Positions 21,852-61,207 are shown, numbered from the stretch's first letter. The stretch is 64,000 nucleotides of DNA from Escherichia coli (GCF_003991155.1 NZ_CP031293.1), one strand, 5' to 3'. The notes: a model not told the origin generated them from the sequence alone. Made by a program: numbers and translations.

Positions 21852-22398
21852 GACTCAATCATTTTTTGAACAAATAGATAATTTTTGCGCAATGGCAGTG
21901 AATACAGGAAAAATCGTTTTGAGCGATTTTATTTATCTTTGATATCGGCTTTATTAATTCATTCAATCAATATATTAGCACTGATTACAATTATACCTTT
22001 TTATTTTTCTGTGTCATGATGCCTCCGTTATTAGCCTTTTATCGTCTTGTTTATATTTTTTGGGCCGGCATGATGCCGGCTTTTTTTATGCCTTCATTAA
22101 TGTGCGCGTGATCACACCAGCCGTTTGGCGCAACAATCATTGATACCCCCCATGTTTCCGCTCAACTCATAACATATTGATATACATTTATAATTTTCAT
22201 GAATATTTATATTTAGAATTCATAATTCTGAATTATATCAAATAGATTAGAAACATTTTGAAATCTTTTAAATACATTTGTTACATGTAATCTTTAAAAT
22301 AAAATGAACTTCATAGAATAGTATCCAAATGTGCTTTTTTTTGGATAACGGCACTTATTGATATATTCATGAAGATTATAATCACAAGGGAATACATA

Positions 22399-23472
22399 AT
22401 GAAAAGAAAAGTTCTGGCAATGCTGGTCCCGGCGTTATTAGTTGCTGGCGCAGCAAATGCGGCTGAAATTTATAATAAAGATGGCAATAAAGTTGATTTC
22501 TACGGCAAGATGGTTGGCGAACGCATCTGGTCAAATACTGATGATAATAACAGCGAAAACGAAGATACCTCCTATGCTCGTTTCGGTGTTAAAGGTGAAA
22601 CCCAAATCACCAGCGAACTGACTGGTTTTGGTCAGTTTGAATACAACCTCGACGCCAGCAAGCCCGAAGGCTCTAATCAGGAAAAAACCCGTTTAACCTT
22701 CGCAGGTTTGAAATATAACGAGTTAGGATCTTTCGACTATGGTCGTAACTACGGTGTTGCTTATGATGCCGCAGCTTATACCGATATGTTAGTTGAATGG
22801 GGTGGTGATTCCTGGGCGTCCGCTGACAACTTCATGAACGGTCGTACCAACGGTGTTGCAACCTACCGTAACTCTGATTTCTTTGGTCTGGTTGATGGTC
22901 TGAATTTTGCTGTGCAATATCAAGGTAAGAACAGCAATCGTGGCGTTACTAAACAAAACGGTGATGGCTATGCGTTGTCTGTAGACTACAACATCGAAGG
23001 TTTTGGTTTTGTAGGTGCATATAGCAAATCTGATCGTACTAATGAACAAGCTGGTGACGGCTACGGTGATAACGCTGAAGTGTGGTCATTAGCAGCCAAG
23101 TATGATGCAAATAATATCTATGCAGCAATGATGTACGGTGAAACCCGCAACATGACCGTTTTGGCTAATGATCATTTTGCAAATAAAACCCAAAACTTTG
23201 AAGCTGTTGTACAGTATCAGTTCGACTTCGGTTTACGTCCGTCTTTAGGCTACGTATATTCCAAAGGCAAAGATCTTTATGCTCGTGATGGACATAAAGG
23301 TGTTGATGCTGACCGCGTAAATTATATCGAAGTTGGTACCTGGTACTACTTCAATAAGAACATGAACGTCTACACAGCATACAAATTTAACCTGCTGGAT
23401 AAAGACGATGCAGCGATTACCGATGCCGCAACTGATGACCAGTTTGCAGTTGGTATCGTCTACCAGTTCTAA
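22399..23472 (+). CDS. yedS: OmpC/OmpF-family general porin, intact YedS-type
   Basis: Signal peptide [21 protein letters not shown] then [15 protein letters not shown], typical porin beta-barrel sequence ending in F; lies between yedR and hchA. Confidence 0.85.
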
Positions 23473-23516
23473 TCAGCCAACGCGCCGCGGCGTGTTACTG
23501 TAAAACTTAACACTAG

Positions 23517-23552
23517 CCTGAGTTCGTCCCTCATCGAACTCAGGCTTTTTTA
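23517..23552 (+). terminator. Rho-independent terminator after porin gene
   Basis: Inverted repeat CCTGAGTTCG...CGAACTCAGG followed by T-run. Confidence 0.7.
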
Positions 23553-24063
23553 TTGGCATTTCATCTCCCTCTGCGGCACATGCAATTGCCAAAGCATATC
23601 GATACAGTACCTTACCCTGCCCCTGCTGGCACAATAACATCTACCCGCGACTCTTCCAGCCAACACCCAAATGCATTTCTTTATGAATTAATCTGCAACA
23701 AAACCGCCTCCCATACAGAAATATTTGCAAAAAAAGTGCATGGAAAAAGCTTTTTCTCTACCAATCCGGGATATAAATATTCATCAGCACCACAATATTC
23801 CACAGCACTAAATCTCTCCCTGCCGCCCCGTACCTCTGATAATGGTCTAAAATCATTGAGGCCACTTGCGACGACGTTGTTCAATAAGGAAAATTTGGCG
23901 TGAATAATATTCAACACCAGTGCAGCATCATCATTACATACTTACACCCGCCGACTACCGCTTTCGATATATTGACTCAATTTTCCAGCCTGGTTAAAAA
24001 TAGCGACCAGCTCAGTCGCAAATATAGTGACTACCCTAACTAAGCAACAACAAGGAATACACT

Positions 24064-43001: not shown

Positions 43002-43613
43002 CTATTTTTGTTTATATAAATCGTAGGAACTTAATTTTTTAGATTTCTCATAGGCATTTTCAATGTATAAAGATACATCTGCTAAAAATCGGTCTTCTTC
43101 TATCAATGAAATATAAGAACCAGTCAATTGATCATATGATTTGCACTCAGGGCAACAATATTTATCTTCTGAAGTTAAATTAAACCTATTATTATTAATA
43201 ATGTCATATAGTTCAGTTGTGTCAATAGTTCTTGATGAACATCCATCAGGCTTGATTGAAGAAGATACTAACCAGTCATAGCTATTATTAACCTTCATTA
43301 TCACACCAACAATGCCATTAGTTCGGGAAGTGGTTCCTCCTCTCTTGTATTCTTTCAATGCATATTCAATTTCCCAGTCAATCCATTTACTTTTAATCAT
43401 ATTCGGGGAAATAATAACGATTAAAACAGATGTCCCGAAAATCATATTTTTAAGATTGTTCTTTATATTATCTACTGTTGTATTACTTATATCAGGAGAC
43501 TCCGATGTTTCCCCTTTATAGTAAACAGCATCATCACCTAATGCCTTGACAATTTTGTCTCTTAAATCCTGTGCTTCACTATATTTATATGATATGAATG
43601 TTTCATGAGCCAT
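43002..43613 (-). CDS. thsB: Thoeris ThsB, TIR-domain protein (203 aa)
   Basis: N-terminal FISYKYSEA... TIR-like beginning, about 200 aa, immediately downstream of SIR2-SLOG gene. Confidence 0.75.
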   Translation of the reverse strand: MAHETFISYKYSEAQDLRDKIVKALGDDAVYYKGETSESPDISNTTVDNIKNNLKNMIFGTSVLIVIISPNMIKSKWIDWEIEYALKEYKRGGTTSRTNGIVGVIMKVNNSYDWLVSSSIKPDGCSSRTIDTTELYDIINNNRFNLTSEDKYCCPECKSYDQLTGSYISLIEEDRFLADVSLYIENAYEKSKKLSSYDLYKQK

Positions 43614-43629
43614 AACTTCACCTAATATA

Positions 43630-45066
43630 TTATTTATTCAGTTTGTTTATGATTTTTATTACAACTTCTATTGTTTTTTTTACCGAAAAATCTTTTTCAG
43701 TAAGCTCAGACAAATCATTATATATCCATTCATTACTTCCATAATATTTCTTAGGATCTTGTGATATTTGTTCAAATATATATTTAGACATATACCCGGT
43801 ATTGGGTAAAGGAATTGGTACAAGGCCATGTTGAACAGCAATCTCAAACTCTCTAAATACTCCCCTAGCATTTACTATATCATTATTTTCCTCTTGTTTA
43901 TTTCCAAAAATAAACAATGCAATACCACCAAGAGGAATCATTCTCTGTCTATACTCCTCCCAAAGTTCTTGAATATCTTTCCCCTTACTGACAGTTTGTG
44001 GAAATGGTCTAACAATGAGCTGTTCTTCTGATAATTTATCTGGCCTACTATAAATTGCATCCAACGCACCATTTATCACAGAACTTCCGACGCCCCATCC
44101 AAATCCATTCACTATCCTATAATTATTCTTTATAATCTCATATGCTAATGTGTGAATAAAATCTAATGCTTTAGGTCTTTCAAGATCCCCATATTTTTCT
44201 GCACTACCAGAAATAAATATCGTTTTCTTTTTAAATGATTGCTCTATCTTAGCTAGAATTTTAGGGATGTCAGAATATTCATCTATTAATAATACTTGTA
44301 TACCAAATCTCTTGAGATCATCGATTCGCAGTTTTTGTTTTCTGATCTTATAATTTACTGTTTCTTCATCATCTAGGGAATTATTAGCCTCATTCTTCAT
44401 AAAGCAATAGTGTGTCCTCTTGTCCCCAGAATGAGTATACAAACGACTCAAAATGTAATCCAGATTTGGGTCGGTAAAACTAAACCCTATGAATAGAAAG
44501 GTTTTTGATATTAAATCTCCGCTAAGTGCGGTGATAAATGAAGCGTGTGTTCTGTAGTATTTTTCATACTGCTCTTTATATAAAATAGCCTTGGATGGGG
44601 ACGAAATATCACCATGCATTTTATATACTATCGCGTCTCGCTTAGGTCGTGTTGTATTTAAATCATCTATGTTTCTTTTTACATCTGCAATTTTGTAAAC
44701 TTTCCGCAGACTATCTTCAATTAAAGTGTCATAGTTTGTTGTCCAAAATGTCTTAATCGGTAAACGAGCAATTATATTATGAACCTCTGATGGCTCGGCT
44801 TGCTCAGAAAACTCTTCGATTATCTTCCTTGTGAGTTTTGTAGCCCCTTTCTTTTCATTAACATGAAATTGAGCAAGCGATATTAGATCGTCTTCTTTAT
44901 TAATGTCTAAACTAAGCTCTTCTGCTATATCGCTAAGTAATTCTTTCCAATCAACATAACCTTGACTTTTAGACATTCCTGCGCCAGAAAAAATAGCAGC
45001 ACAATCATTTTCAAGATCTTTAACAAAATCTTTTATGAAAACTTCAATTTCATTACTAAACGTCAT
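43630..45066 (-). CDS. thsA: Thoeris ThsA, SIR2-SLOG NADase effector (478 aa)
   Basis: N-terminal SIR2-like motifs (FSGAGMS, TTNYD, MHGD) and C-terminal SLOG-like glycine-rich region (FISGSAEKYG...GFGWGVGSSVINGALD); start set at MTFSNEIEV with GGAG RBS. Confidence 0.8.
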   Translation of the reverse strand: MTFSNEIEVFIKDFVKDLENDCAAIFSGAGMSKSQGYVDWKELLSDIAEELSLDINKEDDLISLAQFHVNEKKGATKLTRKIIEEFSEQAEPSEVHNIIARLPIKTFWTTNYDTLIEDSLRKVYKIADVKRNIDDLNTTRPKRDAIVYKMHGDISSPSKAILYKEQYEKYYRTHASFITALSGDLISKTFLFIGFSFTDPNLDYILSRLYTHSGDKRTHYCFMKNEANNSLDDEETVNYKIRKQKLRIDDLKRFGIQVLLIDEYSDIPKILAKIEQSFKKKTIFISGSAEKYGDLERPKALDFIHTLAYEIIKNNYRIVNGFGWGVGSSVINGALDAIYSRPDKLSEEQLIVRPFPQTVSKGKDIQELWEEYRQRMIPLGGIALFIFGNKQEENNDIVNARGVFREFEIAVQHGLVPIPLPNTGYMSKYIFEQISQDPKKYYGSNEWIYNDLSELTEKDFSVKKTIEVVIKIINKLNK

Positions 45067-54017: not shown

Positions 54018-54183
54018 AATTTTAGTCTTGAGACATCTCTATAAGTCTCAGGATAGTTAAAAAACAAGAACTTATCTTTACCCGGTTGTCTCGCAAGAGG
54101 CTGCTGGGTTTCTTGACATCCATAGTTTTTAGGGGCCTAATCAGGGGCCTCACGGTTCGGTGAGCAAACGGAGCCCCCACGCT

Positions 54184-55446
54184 ATGGCATTAACAGACAC
54201 CGCTATTCGCAAGACTAAACCCTCTGACAAACCCTTCAAAATGACGGACAGTTCTGGACTGTACCTGTTGATCAAACCTAACGGCTCAAAACTCTGGTAT
54301 ATGAAGTACCGCATCGACGGCAAAGAGAAGAAACTGGCCTTTGGCCCCTACCCGGAGATCTCCCTGTTGCAGGCTCGCCGCCTGCGCGAAACAGCACGCA
54401 ATAACATTCATGCAGGCGTCGATCCGGCTGCGGTGAAGCAAACCGAGAAACAGAAGAGGAAAAACGGGCAGACGTTCAGCCAGATCGCCATCAACTGGCA
54501 TAGCGAGCATAAACGCTGGTCTGAGCATTACGCGAAAACGGTTATGCGCAGGCTGGAAATGTACGTTTTCCCGGATATCGGGGATCGCCTTATCGAGGAG
54601 ATCGAAACGGAGGATTTGTTATTCACGTTGCGCAAGGTAGAGAGTAAAGGCTTTCTGGAAATCACCGCGCGGCTGAAAAACTACGTCACCGATATCATGC
54701 ACTACGCGATGAAAAAGAAACTGCTCAAAGCGAACCCGGCGCTGTATCTGGACGGTGAGTTTGCCGCGCCAGAAACCAGTCACTACCCGGCCCTGTCGCT
54801 GGATAAGTTGCCTGAGCTTTTATCCCGGACAGAGAATTACTGCGGCAGGCTGCTGACGAAATACGCCCTCAAACTTTCGCTGCTGTTTTTCGTGCGCTCC
54901 AGCGAGCTACGTTTTGCCCGCTGGAGTGAAATCGACTGGCAGCAAAAACTGTGGGTGATCCCGGAAGAACGCGAGCAGATCGAAAACGTGCGCTTCTCTT
55001 ACCGGGGGGCGAAAATGAAAATCCAGCACATTGTGCCGCTGTCGGATCAGGCGATTGCGATACTGAAGCAGATCGAGGCCCTCTCCGGGCATCTGGCCTT
55101 TATTTTTCCCGGCGAATACGACCAGAACAAGTGCATGAGCGACAACACCGTCAACAAGGCGCTGCGCGTGATGGGTTACGACACCAAAAAGGATATCTGC
55201 GGGCATGGCTTCCGGGCAATGGCCTGTAGTGCGCTGAGCGAATCGGGATTATGGAGCAAAGAAGCCATTGAAAAGCAGATGAGCCACCAGGAAAGAAACA
55301 GCGTCCGTGCTGCCTATATTCACAAGGCTGAATATCTGGAGGAACGGATCGAGATGATGCAGTGGTGGTCAGATTATCTTGATGCAAACAGTGACGGGTA
55401 TGTCTCGGCTTACCAGTATGCCCGCCGCCTAAAACAGGCGTCGTAA
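54184..55446 (+). CDS. P4-like tyrosine integrase of asnT-associated island
   Basis: MALTDTAIRKTKPSDKPFKMTDSSGLYLLIKPNGSKLWYMKYR N-terminus typical of P4-family integrases; directly downstream of the tRNA 3' end. Confidence 0.9.
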   Translation: MALTDTAIRKTKPSDKPFKMTDSSGLYLLIKPNGSKLWYMKYRIDGKEKKLAFGPYPEISLLQARRLRETARNNIHAGVDPAAVKQTEKQKRKNGQTFSQIAINWHSEHKRWSEHYAKTVMRRLEMYVFPDIGDRLIEEIETEDLLFTLRKVESKGFLEITARLKNYVTDIMHYAMKKKLLKANPALYLDGEFAAPETSHYPALSLDKLPELLSRTENYCGRLLTKYALKLSLLFFVRSSELRFARWSEIDWQQKLWVIPEEREQIENVRFSYRGAKMKIQHIVPLSDQAIAILKQIEALSGHLAFIFPGEYDQNKCMSDNTVNKALRVMGYDTKKDICGHGFRAMACSALSESGLWSKEAIEKQMSHQERNSVRAAYIHKAEYLEERIEMMQWWSDYLDANSDGYVSAYQYARRLKQAS

Positions 55447-55569
55447 GTTAACAAAGCATCAGAGGGGGAAAAGGTATATTCCCCCTTTGTGCGTTTCAAA
55501 TGTCGATGCTGACTGTAGCTTTTAAACTAAATTACTGGATAAAAAGTAGCTTTTAAGCTACTATCTTTT

Positions 55570-55743
55570 ATGAAAACGATAAAGACCTACATAACTGCCG
55601 ACGGGCGAGATCTGTATGCAGAGTTTTTTAAAGGGTTACGCAACCCCATCGCGAAGGCAACGATCGCTTCCCGGATCAACCGGATGGCTTCGGACAATTT
55701 TGGCGACCATAAGCCCTGCCGGGAAGGTGTCTGGGAACTGTAG
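55570..55743 (+). pseudogene. Addiction-module killer-type toxin gene (RelE/ParE superfamily), 3'-truncated by IS insertion
   Basis: MKTIKTYITADGRDLYAEFFKGLRNPIAKATIASRINRMASDNFGDHKPCREGVWEL then stop inside the IS left end. Confidence 0.6.
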
Positions 55744-55746
55744 TGG

Positions 55747-57709
<1,963 letters not shown>

Positions 57710-57988
57710 ATCTCGTTCTCCTTCATAACATTCCAGATTCCAGAGGTACTTCGTGCTGCTATAACGTACCCGACAACCGGAACACCGGGACAGACAATGG
57801 ATGCGGTATTCGGTTATAAAACGGTATATATTTAAATAGTGAACACCATGAGCGTAATATATTTATTTGATGAATGTATTGATGAAAGGAAAATTGCTTT
57901 TTAGCTATTATCGGCGGGTGTATAATTTAGTCCGTTTTTTTCAAATAAATAATCGCAAATAGCATCTGATGCCACTGAGGACGCAGGT

Positions 57989-58780
57989 ATGAATTTCAGA
58001 CCAGCAGTATATTTATGTGCAGCAACATTTTTACTGGCTGGCTGTGCGCCACGCTCCCCCATTGATGCGAAGAAAACGGGCGCATCCGCCAAAGAGAGCA
58101 GCATCAGCAAAAACACAACGGCACAACTGACCGATAAAGATATTTTTGGCAATGAAACCACGCTGGCAGTTTCTGAGGAAGATATTCAGGCAGCACTGGA
58201 AGGCGAAGCGTTCCGCGTGCCGCTGAATTCACCCGTGATTCTGGTTCAATCCGGTAGCCGCGCACCGGAGGCCATGATGCAGCAGGAAATGAGTAAATAT
58301 TATACCGTTGCCACATTCTCCGGTATCCCGGACAGACAAAAACCTGTGACCTGTAACAAAGACAAAAACAAAGATAAAAGCGAGAACCAGGATGTTGCTG
58401 TTGTTGAGAATATGAACTGGATGCAGGCACTGCGTTTTGTGGCTGCAAAAGGACATCAGAAATCGATTATTGTTTACCAGGATACGTTGCAGACAGGAAA
58501 ATATGACTCTGCGCTGAAATCAACAGTGTGGTCAGATTATAAAAATCAAAAACTAACTGACACAATGTCATTACGTTTTTTGGTTCGCTTCACTCTGGTG
58601 GATGTGGCAACTGGCGAGTGGGCTACCTGGTCACCTGTAAATTATGAGTCCAGAGTTATCTTCCCTCAGACTGAAAAAAAGGGTGCAATCACTACCGATG
58701 TGACAGAGCAACAAATCACCCAGCTTAAGCAGAAAACATACGCAGCAATGACCAGGGATCTGGTGAACCGCTATCAGTAA
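57989..58780 (+). CDS. Lipoprotein (263 aa)
   Basis: Signal/lipobox FLLAGCAP; Lys/Asp-rich central region. Confidence 0.6.
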
Positions 58781-58988
58781 GCAACATCCCCCTTACCTGC
58801 CGCTAATAAATAGTGGCGGCAGGCACTGGCACGAAAAACTCCCTGATGCTGACGATTATTAAACATCTTTCTGGTATTTTCTGTTGCAAACCATCCCATT
58901 CATAGCATATCAGTATCCATCATTTTAAATTTACAGTGATTGTATGCCTCAAAGCTAATCGCTTCCGATGATGGTGCCCGCAATAAAT

Positions 58989-59288
58989 TTAATCGGAATC
59001 GTCTTCTGTATCCTCCTCATATGAATCCCTGACGGTCCCCAGTTTTGTATTGCCATTGGCAGGCGTCCCATCTCCCATCAGAACGTCGATGTCATAGCCA
59101 GGATATTGTTTCTTTATATTGCGTTTGAACTCTGAGACCGTCGAATCATTTTTGGACATTTTCACCCGCTGATATTGTGGCATATCTTTTTTATCACCCC
59201 GGACGTCCTTACCATCGGGTGTTTTGAAGCGAACATCAAATCCCTGTACATCCCAGATTTTCTTTTCAACATTTTTTACTAATGGCAT
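58989..59288 (-). CDS. Hypothetical small protein (99 aa) downstream of hcp
   Basis: ORF with acidic C-terminal tail. Confidence 0.45.
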   Translation of the reverse strand: MPLVKNVEKKIWDVQGFDVRFKTPDGKDVRGDKKDMPQYQRVKMSKNDSTVSEFKRNIKKQYPGYDIDVLMGDGTPANGNTKLGTVRDSYEEDTEDDSD

Positions 59289-59340
59289 TTTTATTCTCTC
59301 TTCAGAAAATTACACTAAATCAAAAAAAGTATCGCTATTC

Positions 59341-59820
59341 TTAATAGAGTCTCTCTTCCCATAAGCTATATGCACTGGTTCCTGCAACACAGTGCTCCTG
59401 AGTAATACTTTCATAGGTGAATGATATGGCCTCTTCTGGTTGTCCCTGGCTATTGTTGACAGTGTGCGGCACAATATGCTTTATGCTGGCAATGCGGGCG
59501 TTAATCAGCTTCACTTTGAAATACAGCTCGTTAATACCAAAACGGTTGGTGCGGTAATACTCAAAATCACAGGTCAGACACTCATTTTCGCTGATAGCCT
59601 TACTCAACAAAGGGGAAGATTTATCCACGGGTTTCTGAATAATGAGCGCTTGATGATTCACGTTTTGTGCACGGGTTAATCCGTGGCTGAGTCCCAGCAC
59701 CATGATCTGATCCATATGCGCAATCTGCGCTTTGTTCCCAATAGATGCCAGTGATGAACAGCCTGCGGAGATCAGCCCCTGGAGATCGCCGTTCAGTGTC
59801 AGGTAAACAGGATTTGCCAT
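59341..59820 (-). CDS. hcp: Type VI secretion system tube protein Hcp (159 aa)
   Basis: MANPVYLTLNGDLQG...KPVDKSSPLL...ISFTYESITQEH pattern characteristic of the Hcp family. Confidence 0.8.
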   Translation of the reverse strand: MANPVYLTLNGDLQGLISAGCSSLASIGNKAQIAHMDQIMVLGLSHGLTRAQNVNHQALIIQKPVDKSSPLLSKAISENECLTCDFEYYRTNRFGINELYFKVKLINARIASIKHIVPHTVNNSQGQPEEAISFTYESITQEHCVAGTSAYSLWEERLY

Positions 59821-59841
59821 ATTAAGCTCCTTGGTCCGGGG

Positions 59842-61197
59842 TTATTTCCCGACCCCTTTATCAATAATTGCCGTTTCCGGTAGAGAGTGATTTTTCAGCA
59901 ACAACCAGCGACTTAACACGCCGTCCAGCCGCTCGTTAATCTGTTTTTCCAGTACGTCGGTATTCTGCCCCTGCGCACGGGCGTCCTGGTACTGCGTCAG
60001 CAGCGACTCAACGGGTGTTTCCTGCCCCAGCCCCCGCTCCGCCTGCCAGATAACATTTTTGATGTAGGAAAGGGTTACCCCCTCTTTCTCACGTTTCATC
60101 ACGAGGTCTGCAAAGGCATGTAAGTCCTGGCGGGCCTGTAACCAGCCGCGTAACTGTGGACTACTCTGCGCACGAGTTTTCAGCGTCTCATTCCACTGTG
60201 CGGTGGCCTGCTGCTGTTGCAGACTCTCCGGCCAGCGGCTGTCGGCGGTACGCGCCATCTGTAAGCCCGTATTCAGCGGCTGAACAGGTGAAGCATCAAG
60301 GAGTTGCTGTAGCCTGCGCTCATAGTTTTCCAGCTCAGGCGACACAAGCCAGACTGTCGCAGCGCCCTGCGCGGTATCGCTGACCTGGGTGAGTTGTTGC
60401 TGCATGGGAGAGACCAGCCACCACCAGAGAGCGGCGGCAACAGCCCCGGAGCAGAGAACACCCGCGATAAAACCTTTCACCGCACTGCCCTGCTTTGCCA
60501 CACTGGTCGGTGGCGTACTGTCAGCCAGGCTGCGCACCTCCACCTTCATCTCCGGCAGTTCAGGCAGCGGCGGCATCACCGTTTCGGTTGCTGGCGTAAT
60601 ACCGTTTTCCGGGGCATAAATCAGCGTTCTGACCGTGGTCTGTGCGGTGTGTTCAACGCTGCTTTTCGGCTGCGGCTCAAGTCGTTTACGCGTGTTCTGA
60701 ACAAAATAAAGCAGGTTTTCCACGCGCGGCTGGCGCTTCAGTTCCACCTGCTGGAGCTTGTCACAGATAAGCTGTAGTGCCCGTTCCGTGCGATATAACA
60801 GAGGCAGGTCAGCCTCCACAAAGGATATCTGCTGGCGCAGGATATTCCCGGTGCGGGTGTTGAACCAGTCCAGCATCTCGGTCCGCGCCGGGCCGCCCTG
60901 CGGCCAGAAGTTATCCCACTCGTGAGTGACCATCGCCGCCAGCAATTCCGCCCCTTCGCAGAATCCCGCCAGCCCCTGTGTCCGGGTCCGGGCCAGCGTG
61001 TAGTAGGTGGCGGTATGCAAATCCACCCCGTTGGCCTTAAATATCGCCAGCGCCAGCGACTCCACCAGTTTCCAGTTCAGCTCCGGCTGCGACGGGTGGC
61101 TGGCCTTGTTGATTTCCTCGCGGATGGCGCTGAACTCTGGCAGGCCACGCGGGTCACTGCCGGTAACGATAGTTTGTGTCAGTACGTTATTGCTCAT
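59842..61197 (-). CDS. Type VI secretion TssA/VasL-family protein (ImpA N-terminal domain with internal TM segment)
   Basis: N-terminal ImpA-like region (DPRGLPEFSAIREEINK...NWKLV...LLAAMVTHEWDNFWPQ), hydrophobic segment FIAGVLCSGAVAAALWWWLV; start set at MSNNVLTQ with GAGGAG RBS just after tssM stop. Confidence 0.7.
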   Translation of the reverse strand: MSNNVLTQTIVTGSDPRGLPEFSAIREEINKASHPSQPELNWKLVESLALAIFKANGVDLHTATYYTLARTRTQGLAGFCEGAELLAAMVTHEWDNFWPQGGPARTEMLDWFNTRTGNILRQQISFVEADLPLLYRTERALQLICDKLQQVELKRQPRVENLLYFVQNTRKRLEPQPKSSVEHTAQTTVRTLIYAPENGITPATETVMPPLPELPEMKVEVRSLADSTPPTSVAKQGSAVKGFIAGVLCSGAVAAALWWWLVSPMQQQLTQVSDTAQGAATVWLVSPELENYERRLQQLLDASPVQPLNTGLQMARTADSRWPESLQQQQATAQWNETLKTRAQSSPQLRGWLQARQDLHAFADLVMKREKEGVTLSYIKNVIWQAERGLGQETPVESLLTQYQDARAQGQNTDVLEKQINERLDGVLSRWLLLKNHSLPETAIIDKGVGK

Positions 61198-61207
61198 CCC
61201 TGTCTCC

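Follow-up and report, generated by a model that had tools for sequence, protein, structure and literature searches.

The window, the 64,000-nucleotide stretch of Escherichia coli DNA analyzed here, carries at the yedS locus an intact gene that very probably encodes a functional minor, nonspecific porin of an OmpK35-like lineage with the loop-3 motif VEWGG. Its expression is probably low or conditional. The product is considered a functional general diffusion porin because of its predicted structure, its conserved pore residues and dN/dS ratios of 0.07 to 0.12.

An intact porin gene at the yedS locus

The original prediction was that of an intact yedS-type porin gene, encoding a 367-aa protein with a signal peptide and a terminal Phe and followed by a clean terminator. 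The ORF listing and the raw sequence showed an uninterrupted porin ORF with zero internal stops (Table 1). The full-length match of its product to Pfam Porin_1 (PF00267; E = 6e-122, 407.7 bits versus a gathering score of 23.7), which covers residues 27 to 357 on profile positions 1 to 337, indicates a real gene rather than a chance ORF. The signal peptide was found, as was the terminal Phe (the translation ends in ...GIVYQF). The hairpin of the terminator spans positions 23515 to 23546 and is followed by TTTTTT; it is conserved in K-12. The observation was therefore confirmed apart from the length, since translation from the ATG at 22399 gives 357 aa. The figure of 367 aa corresponds to a mechanical ORF begun at an upstream ATG at 22369, which adds 10 aa. 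That ATG is without a Shine-Dalgarno site and is used neither by PGAP nor by any homologue, and all relatives of the porin begin at MKRK. An identical coding sequence is annotated by PGAP as "porin" (WP_000824361.1, 357 aa) in E. coli 2016C-3878 (NZ_CP029747.1; from a human rectal swab, USA), to which positions 22100 to 23700 of the window match at 100%. The window corresponds, in reverse complement, to positions 1598524 to 1662523 or thereabouts of that record.

Table 1. Positions of the porin gene and the associated features in the window
Feature	Position	Strand	Basis or remark
rseX small RNA gene with its own terminator (22062-22082)	21998-22087	+	Rfam RF01401, 96.7 bits versus a gathering score of 50, E = 2e-13
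CRP box (TAATGTGCgcgtgaTCACAcc)	22098-22118		The two half-sites are conserved between the window and K-12
Very AT-rich promoter/5' leader region	22150-22398	+	GC content
Shine-Dalgarno-like AAGGGA	22386-22391	+	7-nt spacer to the ATG at 22399; read from the sequence
Porin precursor CDS, named class A allele of the yedS locus	22399-23472	+	357 aa plus stop
Signal peptide, 21 aa, cleavage after ANA, then AEIYNK	22399-22461	+	Read from the sequence
Mature 336-aa 16-strand beta-barrel, hypervariable allelic part of the locus	22462-23469	+	AF2 model and allele alignment
Intrinsic terminator	23515-23552	+	12-bp stem with 7 GC pairs, 8-nt loop, then T run

The gene order in this region is yedI, yedA, vsr, dcm, yedJ, drpB (yedR), rseX, the porin gene, hchA, hprS and hprR. 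The position of the porin gene, between rseX/drpB (yedR) and hchA, is that of the yedS locus, with the same layout as in K-12. The statement that yedS is disrupted in K-12 proved correct: MG1655 yedS (b4496) is annotated as a pseudogene, flagged by PGAP as "frameshifted; internal stop," and its translation runs into an in-frame TAG around codon 162 and changes frame around codon 221. The gene in the window is thus of the yedS type as far as its locus and its intactness are concerned, but it is not an undamaged form of the K-12 gene. Alignment to the K-12 region gave 97 to 100% DNA identity for the flanks and the signal peptide, whereas the mature protein was only 62% identical to that of an intact K-12-type allele (strain MB64, 397 aa); as a yardstick, OmpC and OmpF are 65% identical to each other. 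This divergence, the placement in a different clade of the neighbor-joining tree and saturated dS ruled out a repaired K-12 yedS. The gene is rather a different, OmpK35-like allele type at the same locus. It shares the locus, the rseX, leader and signal-peptide DNA, and the terminator with yedS, be it the b4496 pseudogene or the functional YedS of clinical isolates, and both proteins belong to the OmpF/OmpC family. However, the K-12-type protein has 395 to 397 aa, a PEFGG motif and OmpN-OmpC-like features, while the window protein has 357 aa, shorter loops L4 to L7, a VEWGG motif and OmpK35-like features.

Most E. coli strains normally have an intact porin at this locus, and it is already known, the identical protein being present in RefSeq. 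Disrupted copies were found in K-12 and O157 (pseudogenes) and in strain EC2 (frameshifted, beside IS30). Because the locus decays repeatedly in E. coli, its porin must be dispensable, at least in some lineages.

Elsewhere in the window, an integrative/mobilizable island of about 22 kb, absent from K-12, lies between zinT and tRNA-Ser (about 31100 to 52950). Its PGAP annotation lists a tyrosine integrase, a MobQ relaxase and RepL, as well as a BfpA-like type IV pilin that comes with a PilV shufflon adhesin; two genes of the H-NS family are also annotated. Inside this island, on the minus strand (43002 to 45066), a SIR2-family gene (43630 to 45066) adjoins a TIR-domain gene (43002 to 43613), a pair that looks like a Thoeris-type anti-phage defense system. 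Another strain-specific island, with an integrase beside tRNA-Asn, occupies positions from about 54180 to 64000 and contains type VI secretion genes (tssM, a VasL-domain gene and Hcp), an IS3 element and a RelE/ParE toxin fragment.

Predicted fold and pore of the window protein

The window protein is none of OmpF, OmpC and PhoE, because its NCBIfam scores were below all three curated cutoffs (OmpF, NF007446, 449.3 versus 583; OmpC, NF007841, 431.6 versus 484; PhoE, NF007544, 423.6 versus 599). Alignment to these porins, which had been proposed as a check, placed it in the same family with the same eyelet residues, but with only 59 to 62% identity to OmpF, OmpC, PhoE and OmpN, as well as at a different locus. 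The Pfam family, the fold, the type of signal peptide and the C-terminal motif are likewise shared with these four proteins. The best match in both sequence and fold was OmpK35 of Klebsiella pneumoniae (PDB 5o77 and 9hn1), together with Omp35 of K. aerogenes (5o78), at 66 to 68% identity. OmpK35 could be aligned with the window protein from end to end (505 bits), and OmpF and OmpC of E. coli matched less well. OmpK35 is the major OmpF-type porin of Klebsiella and is encoded at another locus.

An AF2 model was built from a 31-sequence alignment (mean pLDDT of 80.7, pTM of 0.77). It predicted 16 strands and a long L3 (residues 119 to 148) with a short helix. Foldseek returned OmpK35 (5o77) as the best PDB match, with TM scores of 0.89/0.94 and 66% identity, and the TM scores of the model to the crystal structures of OmpK35, OmpF and OmpC ranged from 0.85 to 0.94. 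All seven OmpF eyelet residues (K16, R42, R82, R132, D113, E117 and D121) are conserved in the alignment. The loop-3 motif is VEWGG instead of the canonical PEFGG (P116V and F118W), so that pore size and selectivity are not simply transferable from OmpF. The same motif is common to OmpK35 and to the porins found at the syntenic locus of Enterobacter, Citrobacter, the K. oxytoca group and E. fergusonii, and it is a clade variant that does not disqualify the protein as a general diffusion porin. The 10 residues of the loop-3 core and the eyelet residues are identical in OmpK35 and the window protein, in contrast to the extracellular loops L1 and L4 to L8, which differ (0 to 60% identity). Judged from these features, the window protein has the predicted anatomy of a general diffusion porin.

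From these features, we infer the following route to a working pore. The 21-aa signal peptide would direct the precursor to Sec for export, with the ...VYQF beta-signal at the C terminus serving for BAM assembly. The mature chain of 336 aa would adopt a barrel of 16 strands in which loop 3 is predicted to fold inward as the constriction, with the OmpF eyelet charges all in place; as with related porins, the barrels presumably assemble into trimers. Small hydrophilic solutes, including beta-lactams, could then diffuse passively through the pore.

Allele classes and relatives of the yedS-locus porin

The whole drpB-hchA interval of the window was aligned with those of K-12 and four other E. coli alleles. 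Among these six alleles, none of the 63 signal-peptide columns was variable, against 63% of the columns in the mature-coding region; the proportion was 6.2% in the intergenic region upstream and 8.5% in the region downstream. The divergence begins near position 22469 and ends near 23458. The mature region is an island of ancient divergence within ordinary E. coli DNA.

At least five allele classes exist at the yedS locus of E. coli. The mature-coding core of each class was searched against 5,426 complete E. coli genomes, and for classes B to E, genomes with one match covering at least 80% of the class core were counted. Class A, that of the window (357 aa), was found at an identity of at least 95% in 740 genomes, or about 14% (706 at an identity of at least 99%). 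The corresponding numbers were about 893 for class B (371 aa), 1,140 for class C (352 aa), 1,662 for class D, the K-12 type (395 to 397 aa), and 366 for class E (387 aa). No match, even to the flanks of the locus, was obtained in 534 of the 5,426 genomes.

Proteins of different classes are 55 to 70% identical to one another. Between class A and classes C, D and E, the strands show 62 to 75% identity, and the divergence is greatest in L1, L2 and L4 to L8, where identity is 0 to 33% for L1, L5 and L7 and reaches at most 57% for the other divergent loops (L2, L4, L6 and L8). The loop-3 motif is PEFGG in class D and PVFGG in class E. The dS value was 0.56 for class A versus class B and above 1, i.e., saturated, for class A versus every other class or genus, whereas divergence in the flanks amounts to just a few percent. 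Class B has a mosaic relationship to class A: the two are identical up to about position 22642, after which most 60-nt windows show 64 to 97% identity, with a minimum of 15% across an insertion in loop 6. The GC content of the window gene is 43%, below the E. coli average, and that of all five classes is 43 to 47%.

A class B porin is found at the yedS locus of enteroaggregative E. coli (EAEC) 042 (WP_000824355.1, 371 aa). It is 87% identical to the window protein and also has VEWGG in loop 3; the two proteins are identical over the first ~90 residues, with one change in the first 150, but the 042 protein differs by a 14-aa insertion in loop 6 and by diverged loops L5 to L7. A sixth, "phylogenetically distinct porin" of EAEC 042, Ec042-2121, has been described as being of unknown function (Chaudhuri et al. 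2010, PMC2808357). Its status as an extra porin and the order of the locus tags suggest that Ec042-2121 is the yedS-locus porin of this strain.

The naming of these proteins is not uniform. PGAP calls the class D and class E alleles "ompC: porin OmpC," pseudogenes included, and those of classes A to C "porin." Intact class D proteins, which are very common in E. coli and Shigella, variously appear as "porin OmpC," "outer membrane protein yedS," "protein S1" or "protein N." As a consequence of the PGAP label, many E. coli genomes seem to contain ompC twice, which can mislead surveys of the pangenome or of resistance genes.

In E. hormaechei, Citrobacter, Klebsiella and E. fergusonii, homologues with 74 to 86% identity lie directly after dcm-yedJ(-drpB). 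For the nearest homologues outside E. coli, identity was 86% in E. fergusonii, 80% in both E. hormaechei and Citrobacter, and 75% in the K. oxytoca group. In a neighbor-joining tree, classes A, B and C grouped with OmpK35 and these nearest homologues, and classes D and E grouped with OmpN and OmpC. Both major lineages predate the species E. coli. When species-representative genomes were searched for the exact DNA of the E. coli signal peptide, intact class D-like genes (82 to 92% identity) were found in E. albertii, E. whittamii and two other Escherichia species. The same search found two short contigs of a Collinsella metagenome-assembled genome (Map_57_008) that look like Escherichia contamination. 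One carries a class B porin at 100% identity; the other, which is Escherichia-like, carries a sixth allele type of 365 aa, about 64% identical to any other class, which shows that allele classes beyond the five exist.

E. fergusonii has two tandem porin genes after drpB, followed by a TrkH-like gene before hchA. The first product (361 aa) is 86% identical to the window protein, and the second (369 aa) is PhoE/OmpN-like and 58% identical to it. The idea that the allele classes are leftovers of an ancestral tandem pair gained no support, since the second E. fergusonii porin shares only 61 to 62% identity with classes D and E, and PhoE and OmpN are closer to it.

Strong purifying selection acts on the window porin. 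Between classes A and B, dN/dS was 0.12 overall and 0.19 in the outer loops, and between class A and E. fergusonii it was 0.07. In these two comparisons, the strands gave 0.03 to 0.04 (0.04 versus class B), and loop 3 had no amino acid replacement. Nine class A matches taken at even spacing down the ranking aligned gap-free over 986 of 986 nt and were all annotated as "porin." Read together with the predicted structure, these results indicate that the gene can encode a working general diffusion porin.

The window gene represents one of at least five very old classes placed behind a constant promoter, leader and signal-peptide region. One tentative reading, to which we give somewhat less than even weight, regards the yedS locus as a "porin cassette" site of long standing. 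An expression module that stays constant (rseX, the CRP box, the AT-rich leader, the identical signal peptide and the terminator) would be combined there with interchangeable and very old barrel lineages, some of them shared across species or genera, that are kept by frequency-dependent selection exerted by phages, colicins or antibodies. Classes A and B would then be the ancestral syntenic lineage and the K-12 type a replacement. In the literature searched, we found no explicit account of a multiclass, trans-species allele structure with constant flanks at this locus, at most a passing mention. This allele structure is the only part of the analysis with some novelty value, which we rate modestly.

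Expression, alternative explanations and significance

The rseX gene lies directly upstream of the porin gene on the same strand, and MG1655 rseX occupies the same relative place. RseX represses the ompA and ompC mRNAs. An anti-porin small RNA gene thus adjoins a spare porin gene, an arrangement kept in K-12. The predicted duplex between RseX and the downstream porin had an energy (-20.6) equal to the shuffle mean (p = 0.41), whereas the control with ompC, which we take to be a reported RseX target, gave p = 0.014; an action of RseX on the downstream porin is not supported by this result. Warner and colleagues are said to have reported, in 2013, MicF control of functional YedS. The 5' seed of MicF (nt 1 to 33, MG1655) was therefore paired with the region from -40 to +30 of the window gene, with ompF as a positive control. 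Pairing at the initiation region reached -7.7 kcal/mol, no better than shuffled sequences (average of -10.7, p = 0.87), compared with -27.1 kcal/mol (p < 0.001) for ompF; with full-length MicF, the calculation was not informative for ompF either. Direct MicF control at the initiation region is thus without pairing support in the leader of the window allele.

The CRP box is situated after the rseX terminator and ahead of the porin leader. A perfect TATAAT (22189 to 22194), spotted by eye and a weak promoter candidate, follows about 90 bp downstream of the box. The K-12 counterpart of the box, at 2033766, has been footprinted with CRP in vitro as a high-affinity site (Kd of about 4.9 nM) and attributed to yedS (2026 Footprint-seq preprint, PMC12871828). 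By analogy, the CRP box may have a regulatory role for the window porin. The sole same-strand match in a consensus scan, TTGTTA-16-TAAAAT (22278 to 22305), is another weak candidate. Upstream of the porin gene, the scan found no more promoter sites than in shuffled sequence, and the promoter assignment is therefore weak. The GC content of the leader falls to 16% at 22200 to 22299 and is 27% at 22300 to 22399.

Codon preference was assessed by two simple ratios, the C-ending fraction for Asn, Tyr, Phe, Asp, Ile and His and the share of CTG among Leu codons. The window gene (0.46 and 0.35) has a weak codon bias that resembles those of phoE (0.36 and 0.61) and ompN (0.44 and 0.63), far from the much stronger bias of ompC (0.87 and 0.89) and ompF (0.71 and 0.78). 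The weak codon bias and the very AT-rich upstream region suggest low or conditional expression, which would probably resemble that of the quiescent porins OmpN and Salmonella OmpS1 and OmpS2. OmpS1 is a minor porin behind AT-rich silenced DNA, and a similar behavior might be expected here; its silencing by H-NS is relieved by LeuO (PMC4264507), and its expression depends on OmpR, with StpA also involved in the silencing. One study equates yedS with ompS1 ("yedS (ompS1)," PMC2731931); this equivalence comes from annotation and literature, and the "S1" annotation attaches to class D, not to class A of the window.

Other explanations differ from a functional general diffusion porin in what they make of the same gene. 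The ORF could be intact but cryptic, i.e., permanently silenced in the manner of H-NS and drifting toward the pseudogene state seen in K-12, with no role in permeability or as a receptor. We consider this unlikely. The pseudogenes at the same locus in K-12, O157 and EC2 are consistent with it, as are the weak codon bias, the extremely AT-rich upstream DNA and the lack of a convincing sigma-70 promoter in the upstream scan, and the adjacent rseX has been reported to be repressed by H-NS and StpA (PMC8313858). Against it stands the strong purifying selection, across a long divergence, seen in the strands and in the unchanged loop 3. The gene is also intact at the syntenic site in several genera, and the nine sampled class A genomes were without indels. 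In addition, a porin "50% homologous to K-12 YedS," of unstated allele class, was detected among the membrane proteins of a Shiga toxin-producing E. coli strain (PMC9731836).

A recent import of a foreign ompF/ompK35-type gene from Klebsiella or Enterobacter, which would make the gene an accessory one and not a yedS allele, is very improbable and was rejected. It could be suspected from the GC content, from OmpK35 of Klebsiella as the best solved-structure match, and from the 80% identity of the nearest non-Escherichia relatives, those of Enterobacter and Citrobacter. But this 80% is also the closest that any foreign protein comes, and dS is saturated, so that any import would not be recent. 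The GC content is similarly low in all five E. coli classes, the flanks, rseX, leader, signal peptide and terminator are 97 to 100% identical to those of K-12, no mobile-element genes or scars flank the gene, and the relatives at the same dcm-yedJ-adjacent position point to positional orthology. A specialized channel, either PhoE-like with phosphate or anion selectivity or substrate specific, has next to no probability in our estimate, even if the scores below the OmpF, OmpC and PhoE cutoffs and the noncanonical loop-3 motif might hint at one. The eyelet charges are as in OmpF and OmpC, both the fold and the pattern of loops correspond to the large general channel OmpK35, and the net charge of the mature protein (-18) is not PhoE-like. 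At the position just before OmpF R132, which we take to be aligned with the anion-selectivity lysine K125 of PhoE, both the window protein and OmpF have G, whereas PhoE has K (NGR/VGR/TKR). A functional general diffusion porin with low or conditional expression is therefore the explanation we prefer.

A functional yedS in clinical E. coli has been linked to carbapenem susceptibility (Warner et al. 2013, as cited in passages of PMC4048246, PMC8537846 and PMC11267920), and the intergenic region between yedS and yedR has served as a marker of host source (PMC11267920). The "yedS" of wild strains is not one protein, and studies of carbapenem susceptibility, phage host range or host source must consequently name the allele class. 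The effects on antibiotic permeability and phage receptors suggested in the original prediction would be reasonable for any porin. In Klebsiella, the wide OmpK35 channel is important for the entry of beta-lactams. If expressed in an ompC/ompF-deficient clinical strain, class A could matter for the entry of carbapenems and cephalosporins. With constant flanks around a highly diverged barrel, the yedS locus may offer a neat natural setting in which to study how surface proteins come under diversifying or balancing selection.
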